From contig JAJXYJ010000022.1 of the NCBI GenBank assembly GCA_021780615.1, positions 809 to 64,808 on the forward strand: a DNA stretch of 64,000 nucleotides, read 5' to 3'. Both the position numbers and the translations under genes were made by a program. This DNA comes from a bacterium (GTDB lineage Bacteria; Patescibacteriota; Minisyncoccia; UBA6257; JAGOQP01). The notes under the pieces are model-generated. The model did no database searches. It had not been told where the DNA came from and saw only the letters and a list, made by a program, of their open reading frames with translations. This document shows, piece after piece, positions 27,404 through 53,381 of this stretch. Each line of letters starts with the position of its first letter. Within the stretch, counting starts at the first letter, position 1.

Positions 27404-27769
27404 ATGTCTCTTATAAACCGCATCATTACTCACTTCGTCGCCAATGTGCTTGCTCTCATTGGAGCGGTGTACTGGATTCCGGGCATTGCAGTTAGTGGAT
27501 CGTGGGTTGCCTACGCGAAGATAGCCCTCGTCCTCACTGTTCTCAATATGACCATCAAACCGATTCTCAAGCTCATCCTGAGCCCCTTTATTTTTATCAC
27601 GCTGGGATTAGGAATTATTGTCGTAAATGCTCTCGTCTTATACGTACTTGATATACTCATGAATGAATTGACCATAACTGGACTTTATCCGCTCGTCTAT
27701 GCTACCCTTCTTATCAGTGTGGTAAATGTCGTTATTGTAGCGATAACACGCCGAAAAACAACGTCATAA
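27404..27769 (+). CDS. Small 4-TM integral membrane protein (PF04020/phage-holin-4-like family)
   Basis: 121 aa. ITHFVANVLALIGAVYWIPGI... shows a typical four-helix arrangement. Confidence 0.4.
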   Translation: MSLINRIITHFVANVLALIGAVYWIPGIAVSGSWVAYAKIALVLTVLNMTIKPILKLILSPFIFITLGLGIIVVNALVLYVLDILMNELTITGLYPLVYATLLISVVNVVIVAITRRKTTS

Positions 27770-27798
27770 ACGGCACACGCTTTTTATCTACAACATCT

Positions 27799-28026
27799 AT
27801 GGATATAAAAACTATCATTTCCGCGCTTCAACTCCTTGTGGCTGGAGCCCTCGTTGTTCTTGTGGTCATTCAAGATAGTGGCTCAGGCATGGGTGAAGCG
27901 ATTGGTGGAGGATCACAAGGATTTTCCCAACAACGTCGAGGTCTTGCTAAAGGCATGTTTGTGGCGACCATCGTTGGCCTCGCCCTCTTTATTGCAACGT
28001 CTTTGGCAAACTTACTTATCAAATAG
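27799..28026 (+). CDS. secG: Preprotein translocase subunit SecG
   Basis: 75 aa with two TM helices separated by a Gly-rich loop (QDSGSGMGEAIGGGSQGFSQQRRGLAKG). Confidence 0.65.
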   Translation: MDIKTIISALQLLVAGALVVLVVIQDSGSGMGEAIGGGSQGFSQQRRGLAKGMFVATIVGLALFIATSLANLLIK

Positions 28027-40510: not shown

Positions 40511-41755
40511 CTATAACGAAAATGCGTATAAGTGTTGCGTTCGATGATCAATGAAAAACAGTGTCCCTGCTGTTGCCGCCACGTGCGACACATCCAAAGA
40601 AAGTGCGGTGCCATCAAGAATGGGAACGGATGCATTGTCAGTAGTATCTATTTGATACAACTCATCACTGCTAAAAATAGCATTTTCCAAATAGCTATCG
40701 GGAAGTGTTGTATTTGATCCTTGGCTAAATGATGCGGGCACTCCACAAAAGAGGTGCAATCCATCAGAAGAAAACGCGCATTTTTGAGCAAGCGTCGAAA
40801 ACGGAATAGACGTCATAATATTTCCCGAAACACTGTTGGCAAAAAATCCAAGCATATGAGTGCTATCTTTTGAAATGAAGTATGCAAAAGTAGATCCATT
40901 GGGTGAAAAACGTATTGCCAGCCCTCTACCGGATACCAATGATTGAATTGTTTTTTGAGTAAGATTAATTGTCCACACTTGAGCATTATATAGAGAGGAC
41001 TGCTTAGGAAGCAGTGCGATGGTTGTCGAAGAAGGCCATGCAAGCAGAACATCGCTCAGATATAATGTTGTTACTAACGTCAAAGGTCTTTTACTTGTAG
41101 AAATATTTTGTATATACAATGATTCAGCGCCGGTTCCCGGATCAGTGAGAAATGCAAGAGAAGAACCATTTGGAGAAAATGCCGCACTCACCGCGCCATC
41201 AAGAGGAATCCACACGTTTTGCGTTACATCAAAAAGAGCAATAACTCCTGAATCAAAGGTTACTAATGCTTTTGTGCCAAGCGCATTACCCACCACCGAA
41301 AGAGGCCTCCCATACTGCGACGATGCAATTTTTTGCTCCTTACCTTGTCCCGTAAGTAGGACCACATCTCCCTGCACCGTTACATAAAAAACAGGGTTTG
41401 GAAATGATGGATCATATGGCAACGAAAGCGAGGTAAGTGCCGTGGATGAGGCAACCCAGTAACCCGCAACGAAAGCTGTTGAAAGTTGCGTGAGGCGACT
41501 CAATTGAGATTGGAGTCCTTCGTCACCCTCAACGCCATTTAATCCACCTCCACCACCTTGTACCCCACTTATTCCACCACCCTGGGACGATACTGATCCG
41601 AATCCATTTTGCCCCGAAGAAGATGCGACAGGGAGAGATCCTCCGGGAACAGGAAGAATAAATGATTTTGACTTTTGTAATCCAAAGTAAACACCAACAA
41701 TAATAGCAATAATAACAACAATAAAAATTATAGTGAGGAGTACTTTGCGAGACAT
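40511..41755 (-). CDS. Membrane-anchored beta-propeller protein (TolB/WD40-like repeats)
   Basis: N-terminal TM. Repeated FSPNGSSLAF / FSPNGSTFAYF blades. Confidence 0.4.
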   Translation of the reverse strand: MSRKVLLTIIFIVVIIAIIVGVYFGLQKSKSFILPVPGGSLPVASSSGQNGFGSVSSQGGGISGVQGGGGGLNGVEGDEGLQSQLSRLTQLSTAFVAGYWVASSTALTSLSLPYDPSFPNPVFYVTVQGDVVLLTGQGKEQKIASSQYGRPLSVVGNALGTKALVTFDSGVIALFDVTQNVWIPLDGAVSAAFSPNGSSLAFLTDPGTGAESLYIQNISTSKRPLTLVTTLYLSDVLLAWPSSTTIALLPKQSSLYNAQVWTINLTQKTIQSLVSGRGLAIRFSPNGSTFAYFISKDSTHMLGFFANSVSGNIMTSIPFSTLAQKCAFSSDGLHLFCGVPASFSQGSNTTLPDSYLENAIFSSDELYQIDTTDNASVPILDGTALSLDVSHVAATAGTLFFIDHRTQHLYAFSL

Positions 41756-41763
41756 AATAAAGA

Positions 41764-42741
41764 TTAAAAGTTTATATGGAGATGACGATTTCCTGAAGCG
41801 CTATCGACAATATGCTGGCCAACGGTACTGCTCGTTGTATAACATGTTGTATGACCACATACAGAATTATCAGTGGTTGTAAACTCGTAATGCGGATCAG
41901 CACCGATGCTCTTAAAATAGTTAAAAATGTTTTGCCAACTCGCTAACGTACCAGCATTGGACGTAATATCAGCAGCCGAACCATTGTAATGATTTGATGT
42001 TGCCGCATGAGATCCTCCTGTTAAACTTGATACGGTAAAATTGTCAACGCCACCAGTCTTTCTTGCTTGTTCAGCAGTAGTTAATTTTTTTAAAAGATTG
42101 TAGGTTAGCGTAACCGTACCACTTGGCCCTCCTGCAGTACACGAACAATCAGGAGAACATACGTAAGGATATCGCCCCATAGAGACATCTTGCATAATAG
42201 CTCGGGGACTCGATTCTGCAACACATGTCGCAGAAGAACTCAATCCATCCCCCCCTTTAATGGCAAGATATTTTAATGCAAGTTGTGATTCTTGTGTATC
42301 AGTATTGGTAGTACTTGAGGGGGGAACTCCCGTTGTTCCCAGTCCCGTCGGCGTCGGTGTAACAATTTGAACCTGTGTTAACCCTGGATTTTTAAGAACC
42401 GTCAACGTCGGATTAATAGTATTTAAAATAAGAAATGCACCTCCCAAAAGCACAATCCCCCACACCGCACTCTTAATAATTTCTGTCGCATCCTTTTGAG
42501 CAGAGCTATTACCGCCAGTCACCACATACTTAACGCCCCCATACACAATCATAACCACCGCAAGCGTTCCAGCGATACCAAGCGCATACATATAAATATT
42601 ATTAACCAAACTTGCCGGATCAGTTGAGTTGGCAAACGAAGGAAGTCCTAAATCATAGGCATGTGCAACGAGAGGAGAAAAGAACGTTGTTATAAAAGAA
42701 AGGGTGTGGGAAAATAAATACATAGTTAAGTAATAATACAA
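41764..42741 (-). CDS. Membrane protein with a VirB2/TrbC-like two-helix N-terminal region and a C-terminal peptidase M15 (VanY/LAS-type) zinc peptidase domain. It is a probable cell-wall hydrolase of the T4SS-like cluster.
   Basis: Signal/TM region ...AHAYD; two hydrophobic helices separated by a short loop (ALGIAGTLAVVMIVYGG...AVWGIVLLGGAFLIL). C-terminal SNHYNGSAAD fits the M15 S-x-H-x-x-G-x-A-x-D motif, and the terminal HLH supplies the third zinc ligand. Confidence 0.45.
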   Translation of the reverse strand: MYYYLTMYLFSHTLSFITTFFSPLVAHAYDLGLPSFANSTDPASLVNNIYMYALGIAGTLAVVMIVYGGVKYVVTGGNSSAQKDATEIIKSAVWGIVLLGGAFLILNTINPTLTVLKNPGLTQVQIVTPTPTGLGTTGVPPSSTTNTDTQESQLALKYLAIKGGDGLSSSATCVAESSPRAIMQDVSMGRYPYVCSPDCSCTAGGPSGTVTLTYNLLKKLTTAEQARKTGGVDNFTVSSLTGGSHAATSNHYNGSAADITSNAGTLASWQNIFNYFKSIGADPHYEFTTTDNSVCGHTTCYTTSSTVGQHIVDSASGNRHLHINF

Positions 42742-42744
42742 TAA

Positions 42745-43455
42745 TTACTGCGTAAGGGAAAAAGAATAAGAAGCATTTCCTTGTTCAAAAGGATCTTGAT
42801 TGCTCGAGAGAGCCACTCCCACATTCACTGGTCCTGCGGCCCCCGAGGGAATGGATAGTGGTAACGCCAATGATGACACTTCCGTTGCGGGCACTTGATT
42901 GCCATTCACCGTCCATGTGGCAACAAGAAACTGATCAGCGGTATTAAAAAAGAAAGGAATCGCAGTAATGGTCGAGGTGGTGTTTGTTGGTAAAGATGAT
43001 GTAGGCAAAGAAAGAAAAACTAATGGGTTGGTAACGGGAATAGAAAACCAACACTCGGGAAAATAGGCGCTGTTGTCAGTCGGATCATAATATGAAAAAG
43101 CGACACTGCCGGTAATGTTGCTTCCCGAAAGATCATTATTGGCAATCGTAAGCTCCTGCATGCCTGTGCCCTTACGCACTAAGTCGCCATTGAGATACCA
43201 GCGCACCTCTTTATTTGAGAGATCTAATATTTTCCCCTTATCAGCCGGATTTTGACTCACTGCCTCAAGCGTAACCCGTACGGACGACTGACGAATGGGA
43301 ATAATTTTTCCCATAAACCATGTCGGTGCATGATTTTGAGATTTCCACGTAATAATACACTGCGGATCAGCGGCATGGGCAAAAGAAAAGCTACCCAATA
43401 CCCCTATCACACCTATTCCCATACACAATAATAATTTTTTATACATGGTACCCAT
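42745..43455 (-). CDS. Secreted hypothetical protein
   Basis: Signal peptide MYKKLLLCMGIGVIGVLGSFSFAHA. Length is 236 aa. Operon member. Confidence 0.35.
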   Translation of the reverse strand: MGTMYKKLLLCMGIGVIGVLGSFSFAHAADPQCIITWKSQNHAPTWFMGKIIPIRQSSVRVTLEAVSQNPADKGKILDLSNKEVRWYLNGDLVRKGTGMQELTIANNDLSGSNITGSVAFSYYDPTDNSAYFPECWFSIPVTNPLVFLSLPTSSLPTNTTSTITAIPFFFNTADQFLVATWTVNGNQVPATEVSSLALPLSIPSGAAGPVNVGVALSSNQDPFEQGNASYSFSLTQ

Positions 43456-43511
43456 CTCGTATTCTTATAAAGGGTAGTATATCAAAAAAGCAGTAAGAGA
43501 TAAAACACCCT

Positions 43512-43979
43512 TTAGGGTTTTTTATTCCCCATTTTTTCCAAAACCTCCCCTGCCACTCCAAACCATTGCTGAAACTTTTCAGGATGATTAACGGCAATAA
43601 CCGTCATAATCGCCGCGACCGTACTGATAGGAAGCACATCAAGTCCAGGAATTAACTCAACCGCCTGTGCAATTGCATTCTTTGAAATAACCTGATGTAC
43701 GCCTTTGAGCCATAGCCAAAGAACGGTCGCTGGACCAAATAAAAAGCGAGTAAACCAAAAGGGATCGGTTAAATCGCCAATGACTGCCATGGAAACATAA
43801 AGAAATATTTCAATGTGATCAAAATGTGGCCCAAGTGAATCGTTAACATCCGCCTCCCCATCAGTCAAAGTATCGTCCACATCTTCGTCGTCATCCGACG
43901 CAGCGGAAACATCCTCATGGTACCGAGGGACATATTCCTGACTATCTTGATTTTGCTGTTCTTGGATATCGTCAGGCAT
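43512..43979 (-). CDS. Small membrane protein with an acidic N-terminus
   Basis: 155 aa with a D/E-rich N-terminus and 3-4 TM helices. Operon member. Confidence 0.35.
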   Translation of the reverse strand: MPDDIQEQQNQDSQEYVPRYHEDVSAASDDDEDVDDTLTDGEADVNDSLGPHFDHIEIFLYVSMAVIGDLTDPFWFTRFLFGPATVLWLWLKGVHQVISKNAIAQAVELIPGLDVLPISTVAAIMTVIAVNHPEKFQQWFGVAGEVLEKMGNKKP

Positions 43980-44076
43980 AAAATTGAAAAATGAAGTATG
44001 GAATATGTATCAAGTATTAAGGAAAAATATTTTTTTCTTCCATACTACATATTCCATACCCCTTATCCCACATTAG

Positions 44077-45834
44077 TTACACCAACCCCTCCTCTTCTCC
44101 TAAAAGTTGCTGCGGCTTGGTGGTAATAATTTTATCCTCAAAATACGAAGCGACCACTTGCATGGCTACGTGCTTCAGACCGGCAAAAAAGAGTCCTTGC
44201 CCCACCCCTGCCTCGAGCAACAAATTCTTTTCCGCTTCAGTTAAATTAAATGTTTTTGCCACCGTATCGATAGTTGCGGGAGATTGTTTTAAAAGCAACT
44301 GCAACGATGAGTTGGTAATAATAGGCTTGCCGTAGGGGGAATTCATAAAATCATCAACTTCTTGCGTAATCGTTGAAAGTCCTAAGTAGTACTTGCGTCC
44401 GCGCTTTGCAAGACCATACAGAAACGCCGCACCCTCAGGATATTTCATCATCACCCAGGCTTCATCAATAACCAAAATGCGCCGCTTTAACTGTGACCGC
44501 ACCAGGTTCCAGATAAAATTCAAAATGACATACATCGCGATCGGACGCAGTTCATCCTCAAGATCGCGAATAGAAAATACGATAAGACGATTATTCACGT
44601 CAATGTTCGTTTTTTGATTCACAAATCCGGCATAACTTCCCTGAGTAAATTTATACAATCGCTCAGCCAAGGAACGCCCTCCTTCCATATTTCGCAACAC
44701 CGTCTCAAAATCAGACAAAAGAGGTGGTTCCATCTTTAAGAAATTAGGATTGTCCGGCGTAATATCATAGGACGCATATGTTTCGGTCAGCGCGCGATCA
44801 AGCAGCGACTCTTCTTCCACACTAATCTCTCCTAACATAATTTTAAGCAATCCGGTAAGAGTTAAAATGTGTGACTTAAAAACGTCGGCAGGATCTTCAC
44901 CCTTGGGAACCATAGGAATATCAAACGGGTTAATGTGCTGATCAGAGGTAAGGGATATTTTAAAATAGGTGCCACCCACCGTATCACTAAGATTTTTATA
45001 TTCATTTTCAGGATCGATAACCAATACGTCAGTACCGATCATAAGTGAGCGCAGTATTTCCAGCTTTGTCGCATACGATTTTCCACCACCTGATTTTGCA
45101 AAAACAACCTGATTCGCATTTTCCAATGAAAATCGATCAAAAATAACCAAAGAATTATTATGCAAATTAATGCCATAGAGAATGCCGCTCTCGCTGGTTA
45201 AATCCATTGATACAAAAGGGAAAAAAGAAGAAACCGGACCCGAATTGAGTGGTGTGTGTATACCGAGTTTATCCTGACCCAAGGGAAGCGTGGAAATAAA
45301 TCCATCGACTTGCTGAAAGAGTGCCGGTTTTACATAAATAAGCTTGCTCTCAAAGAGGTTAATAATCATTTCTTCAAGCTCATTGATCTTTTCAATGGAG
45401 TCTCCGTACACCGTAATGTACACCCCCACATCAAAGAGGCGCTCCTGAGCCTGTTGCAGATTGTCCCGCAGAGATTCAATGTCATTAAATGCTGTCTCTA
45501 ACATAGGATCGCGCACAAACCCTTTGTCTTGTCGATCAATAACCTCAGCTTCTACCTGTGCCGCCTTTTTACGCAGATTTCGCAACGCCAGCGCGGTATC
45601 AACGGGATGAATAAAAATGGATATGTCAAAAAGTTTTGACAAATTAATAATAGGAGAAAACCAGCTACTGGAAAGATAGCGTGGATATGAAAAGATAAAA
45701 AATGTTTTTGAATATTTATCTCCTATTTTGACGTAGTTTTGACCAACCTCAAGAGCGGCGGGAGCAATGATATTTTTAACCCCTCCTCCTTGCTCATCGA
45801 TTTGATTATTGGATGTGTGTGTAGTGTCTGACAT
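44077..45834 (-). CDS. Type IV secretion VirB4/TraC-family ATPase, C-terminal ATPase portion
   Basis: Walker A FAKSGGGKSY. Walker B ILVIDEAW. CagE/TrbE/VirB domain organisation. Length is 585 aa. Confidence 0.8.
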   Translation of the reverse strand: MSDTTHTSNNQIDEQGGGVKNIIAPAALEVGQNYVKIGDKYSKTFFIFSYPRYLSSSWFSPIINLSKLFDISIFIHPVDTALALRNLRKKAAQVEAEVIDRQDKGFVRDPMLETAFNDIESLRDNLQQAQERLFDVGVYITVYGDSIEKINELEEMIINLFESKLIYVKPALFQQVDGFISTLPLGQDKLGIHTPLNSGPVSSFFPFVSMDLTSESGILYGINLHNNSLVIFDRFSLENANQVVFAKSGGGKSYATKLEILRSLMIGTDVLVIDPENEYKNLSDTVGGTYFKISLTSDQHINPFDIPMVPKGEDPADVFKSHILTLTGLLKIMLGEISVEEESLLDRALTETYASYDITPDNPNFLKMEPPLLSDFETVLRNMEGGRSLAERLYKFTQGSYAGFVNQKTNIDVNNRLIVFSIRDLEDELRPIAMYVILNFIWNLVRSQLKRRILVIDEAWVMMKYPEGAAFLYGLAKRGRKYYLGLSTITQEVDDFMNSPYGKPIITNSSLQLLLKQSPATIDTVAKTFNLTEAEKNLLLEAGVGQGLFFAGLKHVAMQVVASYFEDKIITTKPQQLLGEEEGLV

Positions 45835-45855
45835 ACGTGTTATATACCTATCATG

Positions 45856-46545
45856 TTATGACTGTGTGCTCGGCGAAGTGCCGACTGCCGAAACAGATTC
45901 TTGTGAGGGAAGCTTTTTTTCTATCGCCTCGGGATTATACAAATTATAATACAGCTCAAGAAGCTCCTCATCGTTTAACGAAACCGCTCGCAAGCCAATC
46001 CGTTCAAGACCATTCAACACTTCATCAACGCGCTGTTGTAACTGAGCATATTTTTCTTCGTCCGATTCTTCTTGCTGATGTTTATTTTTTTTACCCGCCA
46101 AAAACGGCAGAAAACGGGCGGCACCTTTTTGTAACTCTCGAATGCCCCCACCATCATAAGGAATGACGGCAAAAAACGTTTTGGTCATAATTTCATTCTG
46201 TTTCACAAACCCACGAATAAATTCAATATATTCCGCTGTTTGATTTTTAAGAAGTTCGTTTGTTTCAGCATCACGAACCCCTTCCATTTTATGAAGGTAT
46301 CCACTGATATTTAATTTACGGGAATGAATAACGATTTGAATGGAAAAATCGAGTGCATTTAAAAAATTCTGATAGGCGCTGGTAATACCATCTTGTTCTT
46401 CTTCTGATTTGAGCTCAAAATTAACACCAGCCACCATCACTACCGCCCGCAACCCACCCGTTTTCAAACGAATAACGCCATTTTTTATCTCTTCCACATC
46501 AATGAATTGCTGCGTTGCATTTTGAGGAAATGTTGCTTGTGGCAT
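45856..46545 (-). CDS. VirB4 N-terminal domain-like protein. It is in the same frame as the downstream ATPase ORF, separated by one TAA and 7 codons.
   Basis: VIRLKTGGLRAVVMVAGVNFELKSEEEQDGITSAYQNFLNALDFSIQIVIHSR resembles the conserved VirB4/TraE N-terminal block. 229+7+585 aa is about the canonical VirB4 length. Confidence 0.5.
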   Translation of the reverse strand: MPQATFPQNATQQFIDVEEIKNGVIRLKTGGLRAVVMVAGVNFELKSEEEQDGITSAYQNFLNALDFSIQIVIHSRKLNISGYLHKMEGVRDAETNELLKNQTAEYIEFIRGFVKQNEIMTKTFFAVIPYDGGGIRELQKGAARFLPFLAGKKNKHQQEESDEEKYAQLQQRVDEVLNGLERIGLRAVSLNDEELLELYYNLYNPEAIEKKLPSQESVSAVGTSPSTQS

Positions 46546-46647
46546 AAAAATAAGTACGTACTCAAAAAATAATTATCTTAAAAATCGATACGGCTATCTA
46601 TACACGTAGTATACCATAAAATACAACGAAACTCAGCGAAAGCCGGC

Positions 46648-47172
46648 TCACCGATAATCAATACGCCGCGCAACTTCACGCTCGCCCGTGATACGTCGCA
46701 ATACCTGATATTGCTCTTGGATTTCTTTGATCGATTTTCGAGGAGGTGTTTTTTCTCGTTTAGGTATGGGATTTTTTGTGGTTGTTAAATCTTGAAATAA
46801 TTTTCCAACTTTGGAAAAATCGGGAACGATATCTTTTAAATTTTGTCGAGTATGTTCAACCGAAGGAATGGCTATTGCTTCATGAAGCACAAGAGGACGA
46901 CGCCACAAAAATAATTTTGGTTCCCAAAAAAACTTGAGGCCATACAGGGCAACCATATAGAGCGGCCTCCCGCCAATTTTAATAAACGCAAACGTTGCAC
47001 CAACTGAAAGTAATACGATTGCCACCAAAATCCACACAACAATGTTGAGTACAAAAAACAAAAAGAAGCAAATGAGCGCTGGTAATGCAATGAACGCAAA
47101 CTGCTTCAACGTCAGCGGGCCGACGATTTTACTCTCAAAATCAATAAATTGTGGAACGGTAAACTGAGCCAT
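46648..47172 (-). CDS. PrgI/VirB3-like small membrane protein
   Basis: MAQFTVPQFIDFESKIVGPLTLKQFAFIALPALICFF matches the PrgI-family N-terminal signature (xVPQFIDxExKIxGPLTxKQF). Two TM helices. It lies immediately upstream of virB4. Confidence 0.5.
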   Translation of the reverse strand: MAQFTVPQFIDFESKIVGPLTLKQFAFIALPALICFFLFFVLNIVVWILVAIVLLSVGATFAFIKIGGRPLYMVALYGLKFFWEPKLFLWRRPLVLHEAIAIPSVEHTRQNLKDIVPDFSKVGKLFQDLTTTKNPIPKREKTPPRKSIKEIQEQYQVLRRITGEREVARRIDYR

Positions 47173-47232
47173 AGGTAATGATAGTAAGTATCAAGGATTA
47201 AAAGCTATATATCAATAGCCTCAGACAACCCA

Positions 47233-48240
47233 CTATGAAAGCGGCGTCTTAAATCCCGTATAATTTACCACCTTCGCTTTTTCTTGAATTTGAGGATTAG
47301 GTGCCCCATATTTTTTCACCGTAACAGGAATCTGCTGCGAGGGGGCCACTGGTGATGAAGGGGATTGCGGAGAGGCAGGGGGTTCTTGGCGGAGTATCGA
47401 CGATGACGCATCCCGCTCAGGAAACGGTTGTAAAGGAATTTCAACGCGTGCTCGCGATGCTGGCGCCTGCCGTTGTTGAGAAAAGGCTGTTTTAAAGGAT
47501 CCCATAAAACTGCCATACGACATTGGACGATATGTTTGCTGTGGTGTTTGGCGAACAATGGGCTTTGCCTCACCTTCCGTATGAAGAATAAAAGGCATTT
47601 CTCCTTGAGGTGTTGGAGAAGGAGTGGGTATAGGCTCGGAGGCAACGGGAGGCAAAGGAACAGTGTTTATTGAAATACTTTCTGTGGGCATGGGCGCGGG
47701 AGGGGGCAAAGGAACATCTTGGCGCAACACTAACGGTGCCGCTTCCATGGTGGATATAGTTTCTGGAGAAACAACGGTATCATTCGATGCGGGTATCGGC
47801 TGTTGCTCTTCTTCTTTTTTAAGATTAAGAGATTCGTCAATATGAACAAGCGGATCAGTAATAACCAATTTTTCTTCCAACTGTACATCATCAAATTCAG
47901 GATGAGGAACCTCTTGCATGGCACGACGAAATGATTCTATATCAGCCCGTACTGGCGCAAAAACATCACGATCAACTTGCTGATAAATATCTAACGCTGT
48001 TTTTGCATCAACGCCAATATCGCTCTGGAGAGAATCAAAAAATTCTTTACTTTGAACAAAACCAAGGAGCACAAACATACAAAGCCGCTGTAACGTTCGA
48101 TGCTGTTGCTTGGTCAACACATTATTTTCTCGAAAAGAGTACAGCACATCATCTGTTACAGGAGAAAAAAGCGCCTCTCGAATTGTATCGGGTGCCCTTT
48201 CCCATCGTTCATTTATGTCATGTTGAGGATATGTGTGCAT
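47233..48240 (-). CDS. Pro-rich hypothetical protein
   Basis: 335 aa with PLPPPAPMP and PTPSPTP tracts. Operon member. Confidence 0.3.
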   Translation of the reverse strand: MHTYPQHDINERWERAPDTIREALFSPVTDDVLYSFRENNVLTKQQHRTLQRLCMFVLLGFVQSKEFFDSLQSDIGVDAKTALDIYQQVDRDVFAPVRADIESFRRAMQEVPHPEFDDVQLEEKLVITDPLVHIDESLNLKKEEEQQPIPASNDTVVSPETISTMEAAPLVLRQDVPLPPPAPMPTESISINTVPLPPVASEPIPTPSPTPQGEMPFILHTEGEAKPIVRQTPQQTYRPMSYGSFMGSFKTAFSQQRQAPASRARVEIPLQPFPERDASSSILRQEPPASPQSPSSPVAPSQQIPVTVKKYGAPNPQIQEKAKVVNYTGFKTPLS

Positions 48241-48284
48241 GTGTTATGTATAAAATGAGCCACTCTATTTTAAGGAGTTGAAGA

Positions 48285-50828
48285 TTATTTTCCGCCACCA
48301 GAAGGGGTGGGGGAGGGGGTGGGGGTAGTGGGTCCTTTTTCTTCCTCAGCATAAGAACCTCCGATGACTGATGCAATGCTTTTTTCCATCTTCTTGCCAA
48401 GTGCTTTTATGGATTGCACCCGAGATTTTTGAAGTGTCTCCGCGATAGCGTCCATATCCTTGCCGGCAATATTAACTATAAGCTCAGTCGTGTATTCCTT
48501 TTCTATTTCCGTCTGAGCATCTCGAGCAAGACTCACAAAGAAGTTTTCAAGTTCTTCTTGCGTCTTTAACTTTGATGCCGTTGAATGCATTGCCTTTCCA
48601 GGATCTCTGCGAATTGCCTGAATATATGCATTGCGCACCTCTTCAGATTGTTTCTCGCTCATCCCGCTAATATCTTTATATTTTCCTGTTTCTTTATCAA
48701 GAGAAAAAGCCGATCCAGCCATATTATCGGCAATATCTTTCCAATCTTTTTCAGAAAATCCATTAAAAAATTTCTCTGATTCACTAGCAACTGTCGCGTT
48801 AGGAACCTCTTTTCCATCTTTATCTAAAGCACTTTGTCCTAAAAGAAGGCGTGCCATATTCAGATTCATGCCCCGCTTTTTTTCAATAGATCCCATTTCT
48901 TTAACTCGCCCCATCTTCTTCATATACTCGAGCGTGCTTACCATGTTTTGCGGAGAAATATCTATTCCTCCTATTTTATTCTTATCCGCAAGCATTTCAT
49001 ATGCGGCAACTTGCTGGCTCTTATTAAGAGTTGGTATTAATTTTTTAATCTGATCAGGACTCAAGTCTTTATTCTGTTTTTTAAAATCATCAATGTAAAC
49101 CTGAGACCCTTTTTCAGTCGTTGTCTGTGTGCGAGACATACCACGAGCCAATCCTCCAAAAGCCATTTTCCCCACAGGTCCCTTCGATCCCCATGAGGTT
49201 ATAGTGCTTTGAACACGTTGTCCTGACTTACTCTTAAGCGCCCCTGAGGTGACGCGATCCCTCCCCCATTTTGCACCTGTCTGTGCTTTTGTTTTTGCCC
49301 ACTTTCCCGTTTTATCAGCAAAATTGAGCGCCATCTTTGATCCACCATATCCCATTTTTTGAGCCATCTTAAGTCCACCAATAAGCATGGCAACTGCGAT
49401 AAGTGATGTCATGAGACTTCCAAAGGAAAGACCTGTGTTGAAAAATTGCGTCGCCCCGCTCATCGTAGTAGCAACTTGTTTTGAGTATTGTGAAAATTGA
49501 TTCATTACTGCAATAGATATATATAAGAAGAGCAGTAGTGTTGGGGCGTAGAGTGACCAATGAATAAACGTATCCCACCACTGTTTCCAATATTTATTAG
49601 TACTGGGAAACACCCACATCAACCATACCAGTGGAGCAACAATAAGAAGGAATGAAAGATAAAAATATCGCATAAAAAGCATCCCCGCCATACCAATGAG
49701 CGTCAGAAATATAATAAGACCAAAAACAATAAGTATCACCATCGCAAGCAAGTCTCCTAAGGTGGCTCCAAAAAGATTATGAATAAAATTGGCGGTTGGA
49801 CTATATCCACTTATCATACCCGAAAAACCAAAAGAGTCTCCAAGTTTTGCAACAGCAGTAGAACTCATACCGGGAGTGCCTAAGGGACTTGGACCCGCAA
49901 TAAAACCAAGCAACCACGCTGATATGGAATTAGTTATTTTAATAAAAATACCTCCAATCAAAAGACTAAAGTTAACCAAAAGCGCGGCAATAATAAGTTT
50001 CCATAACAAACTCTGCATCTGATAACTTTTATTGCGTAAAATAGTGGCAATCGCAATAACAATAATTCCCAACACAAATCCAAGATTGGCAATATCACGA
50101 AAAATAGTCCATCCCGTAATAATAAATGGTGGTTGAAAATTTAATATAGAATCATTAAATGAAAGAGCCGCTTGTATAAGGTATCCCGCAAGCGTAATAA
50201 ACGCACTTACAATAATAAGAATTAAATATAGTATTGTCTGAATAACAATTCCCACAAGAGGAATAGGGGTATCCGCAACATTACTCTTAGTATTATTTGA
50301 CGCAGACGCAGTACTATTCAATTTTTGATTCTCCGTACCAATTGCAGCATTAATCGCATTAATACGATCTTGAACCGCTTTTATTTGTGCGGGCGTTGCA
50401 TTATCTGGTAATTGCTGTTGGTCACTTTCCGCCTTTGTAAGTAAGCTTTGTAACCCTGCTTGATCACAATTACTCAAGTGTTGTTCATCACATGGGTTTG
50501 TGATGTTAACATTTTTTTGAGCATTTTCAATAAGCTTGAGTTGATTTATAAAATCAGCCTTTGCTGCTAATTGTTGAGGGGTTCCAGGCGGATTATTTAC
50601 TATAGCAGATTCATTAATTAAAGCCTGTTCAGTAATACTATTATGTAACTGACTTAACTGGTCCGCAGTACACTGATCTAGATGCTGAACATCACAAGAA
50701 GGAGTCGTCTGCGCGGATGCAAACTTTAGCGTACCAAATGTCATAAAAATAATGACGCCAAAAACCGCTACCCACATAAGAATGCGAGCACGGCGAGATG
50801 TATGCATGGTATTAGTAAATAAAGTCAT
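48285..50828 (-). CDS. VirB6-like polytopic membrane protein with an N-terminal secreted Cys-containing domain and a large C-terminal hydrophilic domain
   Basis: 847 aa. Signal/TM, then 8 or more TM helices in the middle, then a Lys-rich C-terminal ~350 aa. The architecture resembles Gram-positive VirB6 homologues (PrgH/TcpH/ConG). Confidence 0.45.
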   Translation of the reverse strand: MTLFTNTMHTSRRARILMWVAVFGVIIFMTFGTLKFASAQTTPSCDVQHLDQCTADQLSQLHNSITEQALINESAIVNNPPGTPQQLAAKADFINQLKLIENAQKNVNITNPCDEQHLSNCDQAGLQSLLTKAESDQQQLPDNATPAQIKAVQDRINAINAAIGTENQKLNSTASASNNTKSNVADTPIPLVGIVIQTILYLILIIVSAFITLAGYLIQAALSFNDSILNFQPPFIITGWTIFRDIANLGFVLGIIVIAIATILRNKSYQMQSLLWKLIIAALLVNFSLLIGGIFIKITNSISAWLLGFIAGPSPLGTPGMSSTAVAKLGDSFGFSGMISGYSPTANFIHNLFGATLGDLLAMVILIVFGLIIFLTLIGMAGMLFMRYFYLSFLLIVAPLVWLMWVFPSTNKYWKQWWDTFIHWSLYAPTLLLFLYISIAVMNQFSQYSKQVATTMSGATQFFNTGLSFGSLMTSLIAVAMLIGGLKMAQKMGYGGSKMALNFADKTGKWAKTKAQTGAKWGRDRVTSGALKSKSGQRVQSTITSWGSKGPVGKMAFGGLARGMSRTQTTTEKGSQVYIDDFKKQNKDLSPDQIKKLIPTLNKSQQVAAYEMLADKNKIGGIDISPQNMVSTLEYMKKMGRVKEMGSIEKKRGMNLNMARLLLGQSALDKDGKEVPNATVASESEKFFNGFSEKDWKDIADNMAGSAFSLDKETGKYKDISGMSEKQSEEVRNAYIQAIRRDPGKAMHSTASKLKTQEELENFFVSLARDAQTEIEKEYTTELIVNIAGKDMDAIAETLQKSRVQSIKALGKKMEKSIASVIGGSYAEEEKGPTTPTPSPTPSGGGK

Positions 50829-50837
50829 TGTAACTTG

Positions 50838-52562
50838 TTATGTCCGTGCCTCACAATAAAATGTATTATCGCCCGGATACATAGGGTATGCGGGAACAGA
50901 AAGTCCGGTTAAAACATTCTGCAACACATTGACTAGCGTTACGGATCCTCCACTGGTCCCTGGCCCATTTCCTGCATTAGCCGCTTGCTGAATCACAGCG
51001 CTTGAAACCAGATCACTATATTGTGTCGTAAAAGTATTAAAATCATTTTCTACCGTACTCAGAAGTTGTGCAGAGGTGGTAGCGCTTTGTAAATCATCGG
51101 GAGTAATCGCCTGCACTACTGCTACATTTTTTTGAGCAATCGGAAGTGCCTGATTAATAGAAGTCAGTAAATCGTTAAAATATCCATTATGTGCAACCGC
51201 TGTTGCTGACGTAGGAAATCCTTGGAGTGGATAAGGAACAAGATCTCCAAGATTTGCATACGCTTGTGTCTTATTTAAATCATCATAGCGCAGATATCCA
51301 TAGTTTGGCGGTCCAATTGCCTGATCGCTCCCCCACGCTTGATTTGTCACAAAGCGATTGAAACAGAATTTTACCGCATTAAGCGCCATGTCATTTCCCT
51401 GTGTCGCCAAATTCTTAAGTGTTGCAAGATAAGAAATGATATTAGTATAGTTTTTTATAACGCCATTAATGGCATTCTGATTTTGTTGTATCTGCTGATC
51501 GCGAGATCCCTGTGTGAGATTTGAGTAATCCAAAGTAACGCCTCCGCCAGAGGATGGACTACTTTGAAGCAACCCCTGGCCGGCATTAAAGACTTTACCA
51601 ATAACCACATTTACCAGGGCCGATATGACACTTTGCACATTGGATGCATAGTCGAAATTACTCAAAACTCCTTTTGTTGCCGCCTGCGCCGCCACTTCTC
51701 CGGGGGTCACTGTTTGGTTCTGCGTACAGTAGGTGCTTTCCATACTTTTCCATTGCGCATCACTGTCTTGTCTGTTACTTGTTCCTCCTGTTTGAGAATT
51801 AACCTGCCATCCCGCATCAAGGAATGCCTGCTCACTATGAAGAGTTGTTCCATCCAAAGGACTCTGCCAAGCAACGCATTGTTTCACATCCAAAAATCCA
51901 TTTGATGCCGCCGCCTCACTTTGTGCCGCTTGTTGATTTTGTGCCGCGGTTGCCATATAGGCATTTTCTAACGTTAATGACATGCCAAAATAATTATTTT
52001 CGGGATAAAACAATTGTTGAAAAGAAAGCCACCCTCCCTTTTGTATGAAATCCTGCGTATTCTTCAAGTTTGCTTGAAAATCCTGATAACGACACTGTAC
52101 AGGAAGCCCTAAATTATTTTGAGCATATTGCGATGCAAATGAAAGTTGTAATTCAGGAGCAAGAGGGGCACACAAATTAACTCCTTGTGTTTTAAGATAG
52201 TTGTTTACCGTATCAAAGGCGATATCTCCTGATTTTGCCAAATACCCTTTCCAATCAGTCACAAAAAGAGGTTTCCCCCCATTTTGAATAGAATTAACAA
52301 TCTGGTTAGTCATATCATCAACGATGCGCTTGACGATTTGATCGCGCAATGTTTTAAGCCCTTCCTCAGCAGCCCATTGAGCAATATCCGCAAGATGACT
52401 TGTTACCAATTGCACAAGCTCTGTTGGATTAAAAACAACCCATTGAGCATTGGTTTGCAAAGGAGAAAACACCATAGTGGCAACAAATATACCCAAGAGT
52501 ACTCCACCAATAATCTGACGAGATGATTCCTTTAAAAAAGTTTTAATAACTTTAGTCAGCAT
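50838..52562 (-). CDS. Membrane-anchored Q/N-rich hypothetical protein
   Basis: 574 aa with an N-terminal TM and a large extracytoplasmic domain. Operon member. Confidence 0.3.
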   Translation of the reverse strand: MLTKVIKTFLKESSRQIIGGVLLGIFVATMVFSPLQTNAQWVVFNPTELVQLVTSHLADIAQWAAEEGLKTLRDQIVKRIVDDMTNQIVNSIQNGGKPLFVTDWKGYLAKSGDIAFDTVNNYLKTQGVNLCAPLAPELQLSFASQYAQNNLGLPVQCRYQDFQANLKNTQDFIQKGGWLSFQQLFYPENNYFGMSLTLENAYMATAAQNQQAAQSEAAASNGFLDVKQCVAWQSPLDGTTLHSEQAFLDAGWQVNSQTGGTSNRQDSDAQWKSMESTYCTQNQTVTPGEVAAQAATKGVLSNFDYASNVQSVISALVNVVIGKVFNAGQGLLQSSPSSGGGVTLDYSNLTQGSRDQQIQQNQNAINGVIKNYTNIISYLATLKNLATQGNDMALNAVKFCFNRFVTNQAWGSDQAIGPPNYGYLRYDDLNKTQAYANLGDLVPYPLQGFPTSATAVAHNGYFNDLLTSINQALPIAQKNVAVVQAITPDDLQSATTSAQLLSTVENDFNTFTTQYSDLVSSAVIQQAANAGNGPGTSGGSVTLVNVLQNVLTGLSVPAYPMYPGDNTFYCEART

Positions 52563-52568
52563 GATAAA

Positions 52569-53381
52569 TTATTTCATAATCGTTTTAGCATCTTGTGAAA
52601 CAACATCCCATTGCGACGACAGCTGTGGCAAATATTGTAGCGCAACATATGCACTTAAAGGATCAGTAGATTCGTTACGGAGCGCATTAAAAACAATCAC
52701 CATATTTTCAAAAAAGAGTACGTTCTCTTTATGGAAAGATAAAAATGCACGGGGAACACTCATGGTCAGTAACCCATCACGTATATTTTGATATTTTTGA
52801 ATCAAAGTATCAAGGGCTGTTGTGTCTCCTCCACTAAAAGAGCTGTTGAGAGCAGAAATAATTTGTACCTGGGAAAACGCAGAAATACTCGAAAGATATC
52901 CTGCGTACGTTTGCTTGTACATTGTTATATCACTTGATGATGCGCCATCAATAATATGAAGGGACGAATCATTAATGGATGTCTGTATGCCGATGGCCGA
53001 TGGTGTTAATTGACCCGAAACATCCGAAAGATTTTGAAATTTCCCCGTCTGAATTTTACTGAGAAGCGAGGGTGTATCAGTTGCTCCTTGTTGCACCAAC
53101 TGTGATACAAACTGGCTTTGTAAATCAGTTGCTACCTGTTGAGTCAAATTACTTGGTTGCGGAGAAGCTGCTAATAACACCGTAGAAGATCCGGTATTGT
53201 ACGTATTAGAAAGAATATAGGGAGATGATGTTGCCACCACAGAGATGTGACCCGGGGATGTGGTGTTATGAGAAGTAGCACCAGAAAAAACCCACCCCTC
53301 TAAAAACCAATAACCGACAAATACAATTGCCGCAATAAAAAAAATGAGAAGGTATTTTTTCTGAATATCATACATAACCAA
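52569..53381 (-). CDS. Membrane-anchored hypothetical protein; first gene of the T4SS-like operon
   Basis: 270 aa with an N-terminal TM (LLIFFIAAIVFVGYWFL) and an S/T-rich domain. Confidence 0.3.
   Translation of the reverse strand: MVMYDIQKKYLLIFFIAAIVFVGYWFLEGWVFSGATSHNTTSPGHISVVATSSPYILSNTYNTGSSTVLLAASPQPSNLTQQVATDLQSQFVSQLVQQGATDTPSLLSKIQTGKFQNLSDVSGQLTPSAIGIQTSINDSSLHIIDGASSSDITMYKQTYAGYLSSISAFSQVQIISALNSSFSGGDTTALDTLIQKYQNIRDGLLTMSVPRAFLSFHKENVLFFENMVIVFNALRNESTDPLSAYVALQYLPQLSSQWDVVSQDAKTIMK

Follow-up and report, generated by a model that had tools for sequence, protein, structure and literature searches.

A VirB2-type pilin joined to a Hedgehog/DD-peptidase-like domain in T4SS gene clusters of Patescibacteria

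The window analyzed here (the whole stretch of DNA, 64,000 nucleotides) contains a T4SS gene cluster with an unusual fusion gene, whose product combines a VirB2-type pilin, a Thr/Pro-rich linker, and a C-terminal domain of the LAS (Hedgehog/DD-peptidase) fold. The predicted catalytic residues of this domain are conserved in a large family of relatives, and the gene keeps its T4SS neighbors in several classes of the CPR. Our tentative reading is that the protein may act as a peptidoglycan peptidase which, anchored by its pilin part, opens the cell wall for the T4SS, standing in for a hydrolase of the VirB1/PrgK type.

Results

Structure of the Gene and the Pilin Module

The pilin-peptidase gene occupies positions 41764..42741 of the reverse strand, stop codon included, and encodes 325 amino acids if read from the TTG start, which lies 4 bases past the stop codon of the upstream gene. 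The in-frame ATG at 42723 (M7 in the numbering of the 325-residue form, used throughout) is the start of the database protein P0001, which is 97% identical to the protein studied here, and this ATG is likely the true start, yielding a protein of 319 amino acids. The order of segments, all given here by their positions on the reverse strand, is as follows: a signal-peptide-like N-terminus (residues 1–28, 42658..42741), which was read from the sequence and is kept in P0002, with a putative A-x-A cleavage site (PLVAHA/YD, the slash denoting the predicted cut); a VirB2-type pilin hairpin (residues 45–108, 42418..42609); a flexible linker recognized by its composition, 29% Thr and 60% Thr, Pro, Ser, and Gly combined (residues 111–152, 42286..42411); and a Cys-rich zinc-peptidase-like domain of about 175 amino acids (residues 153–325, 41767..42285).

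The pilin module is identified by a Pfam match of residues 45–108 to PF18895 (T4SS_pilin; E-value 9.6e-10, 38.8 bits against the cutoff of 26.6) and by hydropathy. The matches to TrbC/VirB2 (PF04956; E-value 1.1e-3, 19.6 bits against 27.9) in Pfam and to VirB2 in NCBIfam are below the thresholds. According to the Kyte–Doolittle profile, two hydrophobic helices span approximately residues 48–74 and 87–110, and the polar loop carries Lys71, Lys83, and Lys90. The fusion protein provides the sole real pilin and the sole LAS domain within the 64-kb window. Another pilin-like ORF, 27667–28023 of the forward strand, was considered as a weak candidate for a second pilin and proved to be SecG.

In VirB2/F-type pilins, both termini are located on the pilus exterior, and the loop connecting the helices faces the cytoplasm or the pilus lumen. 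Since the termini of VirB2-type pilins face outward, the C-terminal extension of the fusion protein would be extracytoplasmic, and the six conserved cysteines of the C-terminal domain fit this location. All sequence-level observations of the initial annotation (the ORF, the two helices, the Thr-rich linker, the SNHYNGSAAD motif, and the terminal HLH) were confirmed, and its two-module architecture, a VirB2-like pilin joined by the linker to a domain of the zinc-peptidase type, is upheld by the above-threshold PF18895 match together with the profile and model evidence for the LAS fold.

Fold and Relationships of the C-terminal Domain

Single-sequence searches of Pfam, NCBIfam, PHROGs, and PDB (phmmer) produced nothing useful for the C-terminal half of the protein; the matches to adenylosuccinate synthase, with E-values of 0.12–0.13, were regarded as noise. 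No M15, VanY, or Hedgehog HMM of Pfam matched the query at E ≤ 10. The family profile built from 65 sequences was more informative: compared with all PDB sequences, it matched the N-domains of Sonic, Indian, and Desert hedgehog with E-values from 2.7e-6 to 1e-4, the Shh chain match (E-value 2.7e-6) covering 56 columns only, and the phage L-Ala-D-Glu peptidases (M15C) with E-values of 0.1–0.75. In the hhalign comparison of the family profile with human ShhN (probability 95%, E-value 3e-8), His245, His251, Asp258, and Glu286 are paired with His134, His140, Asp147, and Glu176 of Shh, where His134 is the assisting histidine, His140 and Asp147 are zinc ligands, and Glu176 is the general base (PMC6027127, and in part general knowledge). 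When the domains of the 65 relatives were scanned singly, all matches were weak, 18 to HH_signal (PF01085; best E-value 2.4e-4), 16 to Peptidase_M15_4, and 13 to Peptidase_M15_3 (best E-value for M15_4/M15_3, 1.6e-3), and VanY was absent among the families matched by these relatives.

An earlier full-length model, based on a three-sequence alignment, had pLDDT 43 and was unusable; the model of the domain based on a deeper alignment has pLDDT 96.5 and pTM 0.91. The Foldseek search of PDB with the domain model again ranked Hedgehog N-domains first, with weak E-values (0.06–0.3) and 16–20% identity, and the search of a viral structure library yielded weak matches to LAS domains, including those of phage tape-measure proteins and Gp5 tail lysins. 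The elements of the model follow in the same order as in Shh, that is, a strand, a short helix (with His251), a strand (Asp258), a long helix, a strand (Glu286), and the terminal strand (His320 and His322). The predicted convergence of the three ligands on a single metal site draws its support from this order of elements and from the statistics of structural superposition.

According to the profile comparisons and the model, the C-terminal domain is a divergent LAS, or Hedgehog/DD-peptidase, domain, which shares the superfamily with M15 and has Hedgehog as the nearest solved neighbor. Thus, of the initial label "M15 (VanY-type)," the superfamily containing M15 stands, and the VanY family is rejected, given the lack of an M15 or VanY HMM match and the presence of H-x-H instead of E-x-x-H. 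Membership in bacHh is rejected as well, in view of the 16–20% identity, the missing acidic calcium cluster, and the query falling short of the PF01085 threshold. The initial annotation had named the absence of a significant M15 HMM hit as refuting its proposal, and no significant Pfam match of the query to M15 or VanY was indeed found; by the LAS/Hedgehog–DD-peptidase placement, which relies on profiles and the model, this is too strict a refutation.

Conservation of the Predicted Active Site

The SNHYNGSAAD segment (residues 249–258, 41968..41997 of the reverse strand) conforms to the S-x-H-x-x-G-x-A-x-D motif of M15 and contains two predicted zinc ligands, His251 and Asp258. The H-x-H motif, His320-Leu-His322 (41776..41784, reverse strand), lies in the last β-strand, 3 residues short of the C-terminus, and is predicted to supply the third zinc ligand and a catalytic histidine. 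Together, His251-x6-Asp258 and His320-Leu-His322 form the H-x6-D ... H-x-H pattern of the LAS metallopeptidases. Glu286 (41884..41886, reverse strand) is the predicted general base, according to the hhalign pairing with Shh and to its conservation.

In the alignment of 111 relatives, His251, Gly254, and Asp258 are invariant (111/111), His245 and His320 are each retained in 110 sequences, and the position of His322 is occupied by histidine in 107 and by aspartate in three. Position 286 is acidic in 108 out of 111 relatives (Glu in 87, Asp in 21), and six cysteines are conserved in at least 90% of the relatives. Judged from this alignment, the conservation of the H/D/H-x-H pattern is far beyond chance. 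In VanX and VanY, the motif of the third ligand is E-x-x-H, with the catalytic glutamate 3 residues before the last histidine. The fusion protein has R-H-L-H as its C-terminal motif and the conserved glutamate 34–36 residues upstream, and thus deviates from E-x-x-H. Since the predicted catalytic residues equal the metal ligands in their degree of conservation, an active hydrolase is favored over a binding module.

Genomic Context

The genes encoding the PrgI/VirB3-like protein (46648–47172), the TraC_N-like protein (45856–46545), and the VirB4-type ATPase (44077–45834) form one co-directional block with the fusion gene on the reverse strand, separated by short gaps. The location of the fusion gene inside a T4SS cluster, as initially suggested, is thereby borne out. 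Two small reverse-strand genes without a Pfam family (43512–43979 and 42745–43455), syntenic in several CPR classes, lie between the VirB4 gene and the fusion gene. On the other side, 8 nt downstream of the fusion gene, the same strand encodes a protein whose N-terminal segment is hydrophobic and which weakly matches the PD40 (TolB-type β-propeller) repeat (40511..41755). A Mur ligase gene and other housekeeping genes are found within 8 kb of the fusion gene.

Among the ORFs from 40511 to 53381, Pfam at E ≤ 0.01 detected no domain of the SLT, lysozyme, CHAP, or NlpC type. To this extent the fusion protein is, as had been claimed, the only candidate cell-wall hydrolase of the cluster, the claim being tempered by its reliance on the sensitivity of Pfam alone and by several large unannotated ORFs of the T4SS cluster, including those of 847 and 574 amino acids, which might hide another hydrolase. 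Besides the two small genes, the ORFs of the cluster lacking annotation are 47233–48240, 48285–50828, and 50838–52562.

Distribution and Domain Combinations of the Family

A word-indexed protein search retrieved two relatives of the C-terminal domain, and a HMMER search of 1.84 billion cluster representatives with a three-sequence profile of residues 150–325 retrieved 171 at E ≤ 1e-3, including 72 at E ≤ 1e-10 (both counted as cluster representatives). The domain terminates at the C-terminus of the protein in 134 out of 140 single-domain matches. The pilin module PF18895 is present in 120 out of 151 relatives (88 out of 111 not exceeding 420 amino acids, and 32 out of 40 longer ones). Five relatives contain an SLT lytic transglycosylase domain (E-value 1.9e-18 in P0027), the orders of domains being pilin-SLT-LAS in P0027, pilin-LAS-SLT in P0089, and pilin-Ig-LAS-SLT in P0087. 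Two LAS domains in tandem occur in about ten relatives and Ig-like spacers (He_PIG) in some, and in P0064, P0030, and P0049 a large N-terminal region is followed by the PF18895 pilin module, which immediately precedes the LAS domain.

A species-representative genome collection was scanned with a back-translated signature of about 49 bits, for which an estimated 0.002 chance matches were expected, yielding 24 loci. Sixteen of these belong to the CPR (Saccharibacteria, Parcubacteria/Paceibacterota, Wolfe-, Jorgensen-, Yanofsky-, and Moraniibacteria), six come from other MAGs, and two are outliers, a Bdellovibrionales MAG and a Fibrobacterota SAG. By tblastn, the complete block, from the PrgI gene through the TraC_N, VirB4, and both small genes (43512–43979, then 42745–43455) to the fusion gene, was observed in five loci (L002, L004, L005, L017, and L022), and, within the extent of the sequence retrieved for them, L014 and L020 show the same PrgI-to-fusion block. 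These two are the closest loci (VirB4 is 83% identical in L020; L014 is from a Wolfebacteria MAG), which makes a CPR organism of the Paceibacteria type the probable source of the window. The synteny of PrgI, TraC_N, and VirB4 spans Saccharibacteria, Jorgensenbacteria, Wolfebacteria, and further MAGs. The gene resembling that at 40511–41755, with PD40 repeats, co-occurs in 11 out of 24 loci, and in four loci (L003, L013, L016, and L024) the fusion gene heads an array of one to six plain pilin paralogs. By the distribution of its sequences, the pilin-peptidase fusion is a CPR-wide family trait and no accident of one genome.

Discussion

Comparison with Known Proteins and Systems

The domain shares with HhN (PF01085) and bacHh the G-x-H-S-x-x-S-x-H-Y-x-G-x-A-x-D block, the downstream glutamate, and H-x-H, as well as the order of the strand with Asp, helix, strand with Glu, and strand with H-x-H; similarly to bacHh, it forms the C-terminal part of a bacterial protein anchored in the membrane. 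The bacHh proteins show more than 50% identity to ShhN and have its two-calcium acidic site (Glu89, Glu90, Asp95, Glu126, Asp129, and Asp131 of Shh) (Roelink 2018, PMC6027127). In contrast, this acidic cluster is absent from the fusion protein, where SSL--TGG is aligned with TEGWDEDG of Shh. Unlike HhN, the domain has a 30-residue Cys-containing insertion between the glutamate and H-x-H and an additional N-terminal Cys-rich subdomain; it also differs from bacHh in the T4SS pilin anchor, the CPR restriction of the family, and the identity of 16–20%.

Comparison with M15 (the phage L-Ala-D-Glu endopeptidases of T5, Ply500, and LysB4, VanY/VanX, and the Streptomyces albus DD-carboxypeptidase) yields a similar picture. 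H-x6-D within S-x-H-x-x-G-x-A-x-D is shared, peptide bonds of peptidoglycan are the presumed substrate, and some relatives have weak M15_4/M15_3 matches, whereas the fusion protein has H-x-H instead of D/E-x-x-H, a Cys-rich domain, and a pilin, and gives no match to the M15 HMMs.

At the level of the system, the fusion protein resembles VirB1, PrgK, TraG of pIP501, and TcpG in being a protein of the hydrolase type encoded in a T4SS cluster and, as in monoderms, membrane-tethered, and five of its relatives share the two-activity design, SLT plus peptidase. Unlike these proteins, the query lacks SLT, lysozyme, and CHAP domains, and, compared with the PrgK/TraG type, it would be a metalloenzyme of the LAS type in place of a CHAP cysteine peptidase, held by a VirB2-type hairpin instead of a single transmembrane helix. 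The phage virion-associated lysins and the X-T4SS effectors are likewise wall-cutters built into or delivered by a penetration or secretion device, but their carriers are different, and the sequence relationship is limited to the LAS fold. The peptidoglycan-degrading effectors of X-T4SS depend on VirD4, and no VirD4 coupling protein was found among the window ORFs scanned, 28038–56070.

The closest described case is SEML1_0007 of Ca. Southlakia epibionticum, a 1113-residue protein encoded beside virB4 and essential in Tn-seq (Wang et al. 2023, PMC10633639). Its residues 951–1105 were assigned to the ECOD group "Hedgehog/DD-peptidase" with Shh as the template (PMC10633639, Table S2), and lysozyme-like and cysteine-proteinase domains were assigned to the neighboring essential SEML1_0006 (PMC10633639). 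Both SEML1_0007 and the fusion protein have a Hedgehog/DD-peptidase domain at the extreme C-terminus and belong to a patescibacterial T4SS cluster, and P0064, P0030, and P0049 share the layout of SEML1_0007; the latter differs from the fusion protein in its large N-terminal region and in having no pilin module annotated in Table S2. From this comparison, made by the published description only, SEML1_0007 is probably homologous to the pilin-peptidase family.

Proposed Function

Patescibacterial T4SSs have been classed with the monoderm MPF-FATA systems (2025 survey, PMC12102498). The fusion protein may be a Sec-exported VirB2-type pilin of such a monoderm-type T4SS, with its C-terminus outward. 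After removal of the signal peptide, the two-helix hairpin would reside in the membrane at the site of T4SS assembly, the loop in the cytoplasm and both ends outside, and the 40-residue Thr/Pro linker would let the disulfide-stabilized domain reach peptidoglycan. There, zinc bound by His251, Asp258, and His322 would activate water, with Glu286 as the general base and His245 and His320 assisting, and the domain would cut a peptide bond of a stem peptide or cross-link; the resulting local opening of the wall would allow the T4SS channel or pilus to pass. Peptidoglycan is the probable substrate because the recurring pairing with SLT mirrors the glycan-plus-peptide pair of the PrgK/TraG-type T4SS hydrolases. 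The initial idea of a wall hydrolase that cuts peptides rather than glycan agrees, its activity being predicted, with the domain of the zinc-peptidase type and with the lack of SLT, lysozyme, and CHAP domains in the query. The producer's own wall would be the first target.

This own-wall reading is weakened, since the full pilin module and the head position in pilin arrays exceed the needs of a self-wall hydrolase. The same features lend some weight to a host-directed role, which we regard as possible and on the unlikely side: the fusion protein would polymerize into, or cap, a T4SS pilus, and the peptidase would cut cross-links of the host wall for exchange between the epibiont and the host. 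Retention of the complete pilin module in 120 out of 151 relatives, the first position of the fusion gene in arrays of one to six plain pilins (L003, L013, L016, and L024), and the long flexible linker are consistent with this role, as are the family being essentially confined to CPR epibionts, the exterior location of VirB2/F-type pilin termini, and the weak structural echoes in phage tape-measure proteins and Gp5 tail lysins. Moreover, He_PIG spacers, tandem LAS domains, and large N-terminal regions occur in the family as in surface-exposed host-interaction proteins. On the other hand, an 18-kDa domain per subunit would have to fit the pilus packing, every subunit would bear it, as the fusion protein is the only pilin in the window, and the CPR T4SS pilus is itself hypothetical. 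A more specific version, a patescibacterial T4SS "catalytic pilus" whose subunits or tip/leader pilin carry the Hedgehog-like zinc peptidase, sometimes with SLT, and digest the host wall where the epibiont touches its host, is doubtful at present. Action on the producer's own wall and on the host wall are compatible, not mutually exclusive.

Other interpretations concern the domain itself. Hedgehog N-domains, the nearest among solved structures, are signaling ligands of debated peptidase activity, which speaks against an active peptidase and suggests that the LAS domain could serve as an adhesin or anchor by binding stem peptides or some other ligand, similarly to the Hedgehog N-domain; inactive LAS/LytM domains are also known in T4SS hydrolases such as PrgK. 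Still, Glu/Asp at position 286 (108/111) and the second-shell His245 (110/111) are as strict as the metal ligands, which is unexpected for pure binding and makes a non-catalytic module improbable. We give even less credence to a cleavable C-terminal pro-domain, that is, a peptidase removed once exported, possibly by its own activity, so as to mature the pilin or to free a hydrolase or effector. The low-complexity linker between the modules and the C-terminal processing known for TrbC/VirB2 are in line with such cleavage. Autoproteolysis has been proposed for Shh as well (PMC6027127). However, the linker shows no conserved motif for cleavage, and SLT following LAS and tandem LAS domains in the relatives would better suit a multi-enzyme tether. 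Finally, the Mur ligase and the other housekeeping genes nearby would fit a housekeeping wall peptidase adjacent to the T4SS by coincidence, but the covalent fusion with a T4SS pilin in most relatives and the VirB4/PrgI synteny kept across CPR classes make this highly improbable. Hence the pilin-anchored peptidase opening the wall for the T4SS is retained as the preferred reading, with the reserve stated at the outset.

Significance for Patescibacterial T4SS

The role of T4SS in Patescibacteria has been described as completely unknown (PMC11665869). In the 2025 survey, VirB2-like pilins were found near virB4 in 1135 assemblies, most genomes bearing VirB2 were without VirB1, and M15 or Hedgehog domains are not mentioned in the supplements (PMC12102498). 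That a CPR T4SS cluster encodes a peptidase of the Hedgehog fold has been documented before, in the supplementary table of PMC10633639; as for the covalent fusion with a pilin, the extent of the family, and the combinations with SLT, no description was found in the literature searched, whose coverage was incomplete.

Conservation of the T4SS extends across Patescibacteria, and the system is essential in their sole genetically tractable species; a LAS peptidase tethered to a pilin, sometimes together with SLT, is a testable candidate for crossing of the wall, be it that of the producer or of the host, with the fusion family supplying precise catalytic residues for mutation. The family also forms a large and divergent branch among bacteria, with Hedgehog domains as its nearest solved relatives, and thus bears on the origin of the Hedgehog/DD-peptidase fold. 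If true, the catalytic pilus would give the essential T4SS of the CPR the function long sought for it, and the Hedgehog N-domain would gain a large bacterial sister group specific to the CPR.

Domain architecture of the family

The combination of the pilin module with the LAS domain (a zinc-peptidase-like domain of the Hedgehog/DD-peptidase fold) is elaborated in several ways among database relatives of the fusion. About 10 family representatives (P0003–P0016, about 550–640 aa) carry two LAS domains in tandem behind a single pilin module, and in four characterised representatives (P0027, P0046, P0087, and P0089) an SLT lytic transglycosylase domain is added, either before or after the LAS domain. 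The Cys preceding the catalytic Glu ("CE") is conserved in the family, and in the window protein and its two closest relatives it is replaced by Tyr (Y285 in the window protein) and a close Cys pair is found instead (C295 and C300 in the window protein; the three residues are encoded at 41842–41887). This pattern suggests that the disulfide has been rewired in this sub-clade.

Distribution and pilin arrays

In four of the loci with the family signature, a tandem array of one to six plain pilin paralogues begins with the fusion gene (L003, 2313–5070; L013, 991–5483; L016, 2417–7350; L024, 6340–7951). A small two-helix ORF of the window that faintly resembles the pilin module (27667–28023, forward strand) is not a pilin; it encodes SecG (PF03840, E-value 4.5e-7).

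The signature is also present in a MAG labelled Bdellovibrionales, as a full pilin–LAS fusion of 468 aa (L009, 3652–5055, reverse strand), and in a Fibrobacterota single-cell assembly (L007, 2–277, forward strand); these two occurrences could reflect horizontal transfer, contamination, or mis-binning.

Genomic context of the fusion

All neighbouring genes considered here lie on the reverse strand. Two large ORFs of the T4SS cluster (48285–50828, 847 aa, and 50838–52562, 574 aa) have no confident family assignment, with weak matches to DUF4141 and PHROGs of unknown function, and could encode VirB6-like or other structural components. Two small genes between VirB4 and the fusion (42745–43455 and 43512–43979), whose products match no family in Pfam or PHROG, are retained at the same place in Saccharibacteria, Jorgensenbacteria, and Wolfebacteria loci; their products are likely uncharacterised T4SS components. 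Finally, 8 nt downstream of the fusion lies a gene (40511–41755) whose product is hydrophobic in an N-terminal segment and weakly matches PD40 (TolB-type beta-propeller) repeats. This conserved partner of the pilin–peptidase gene has similar genes in 11 of 24 loci (CPR loci L001, L004, L005, L006, L011, L014, L017, L019, L020, L022, and L023).
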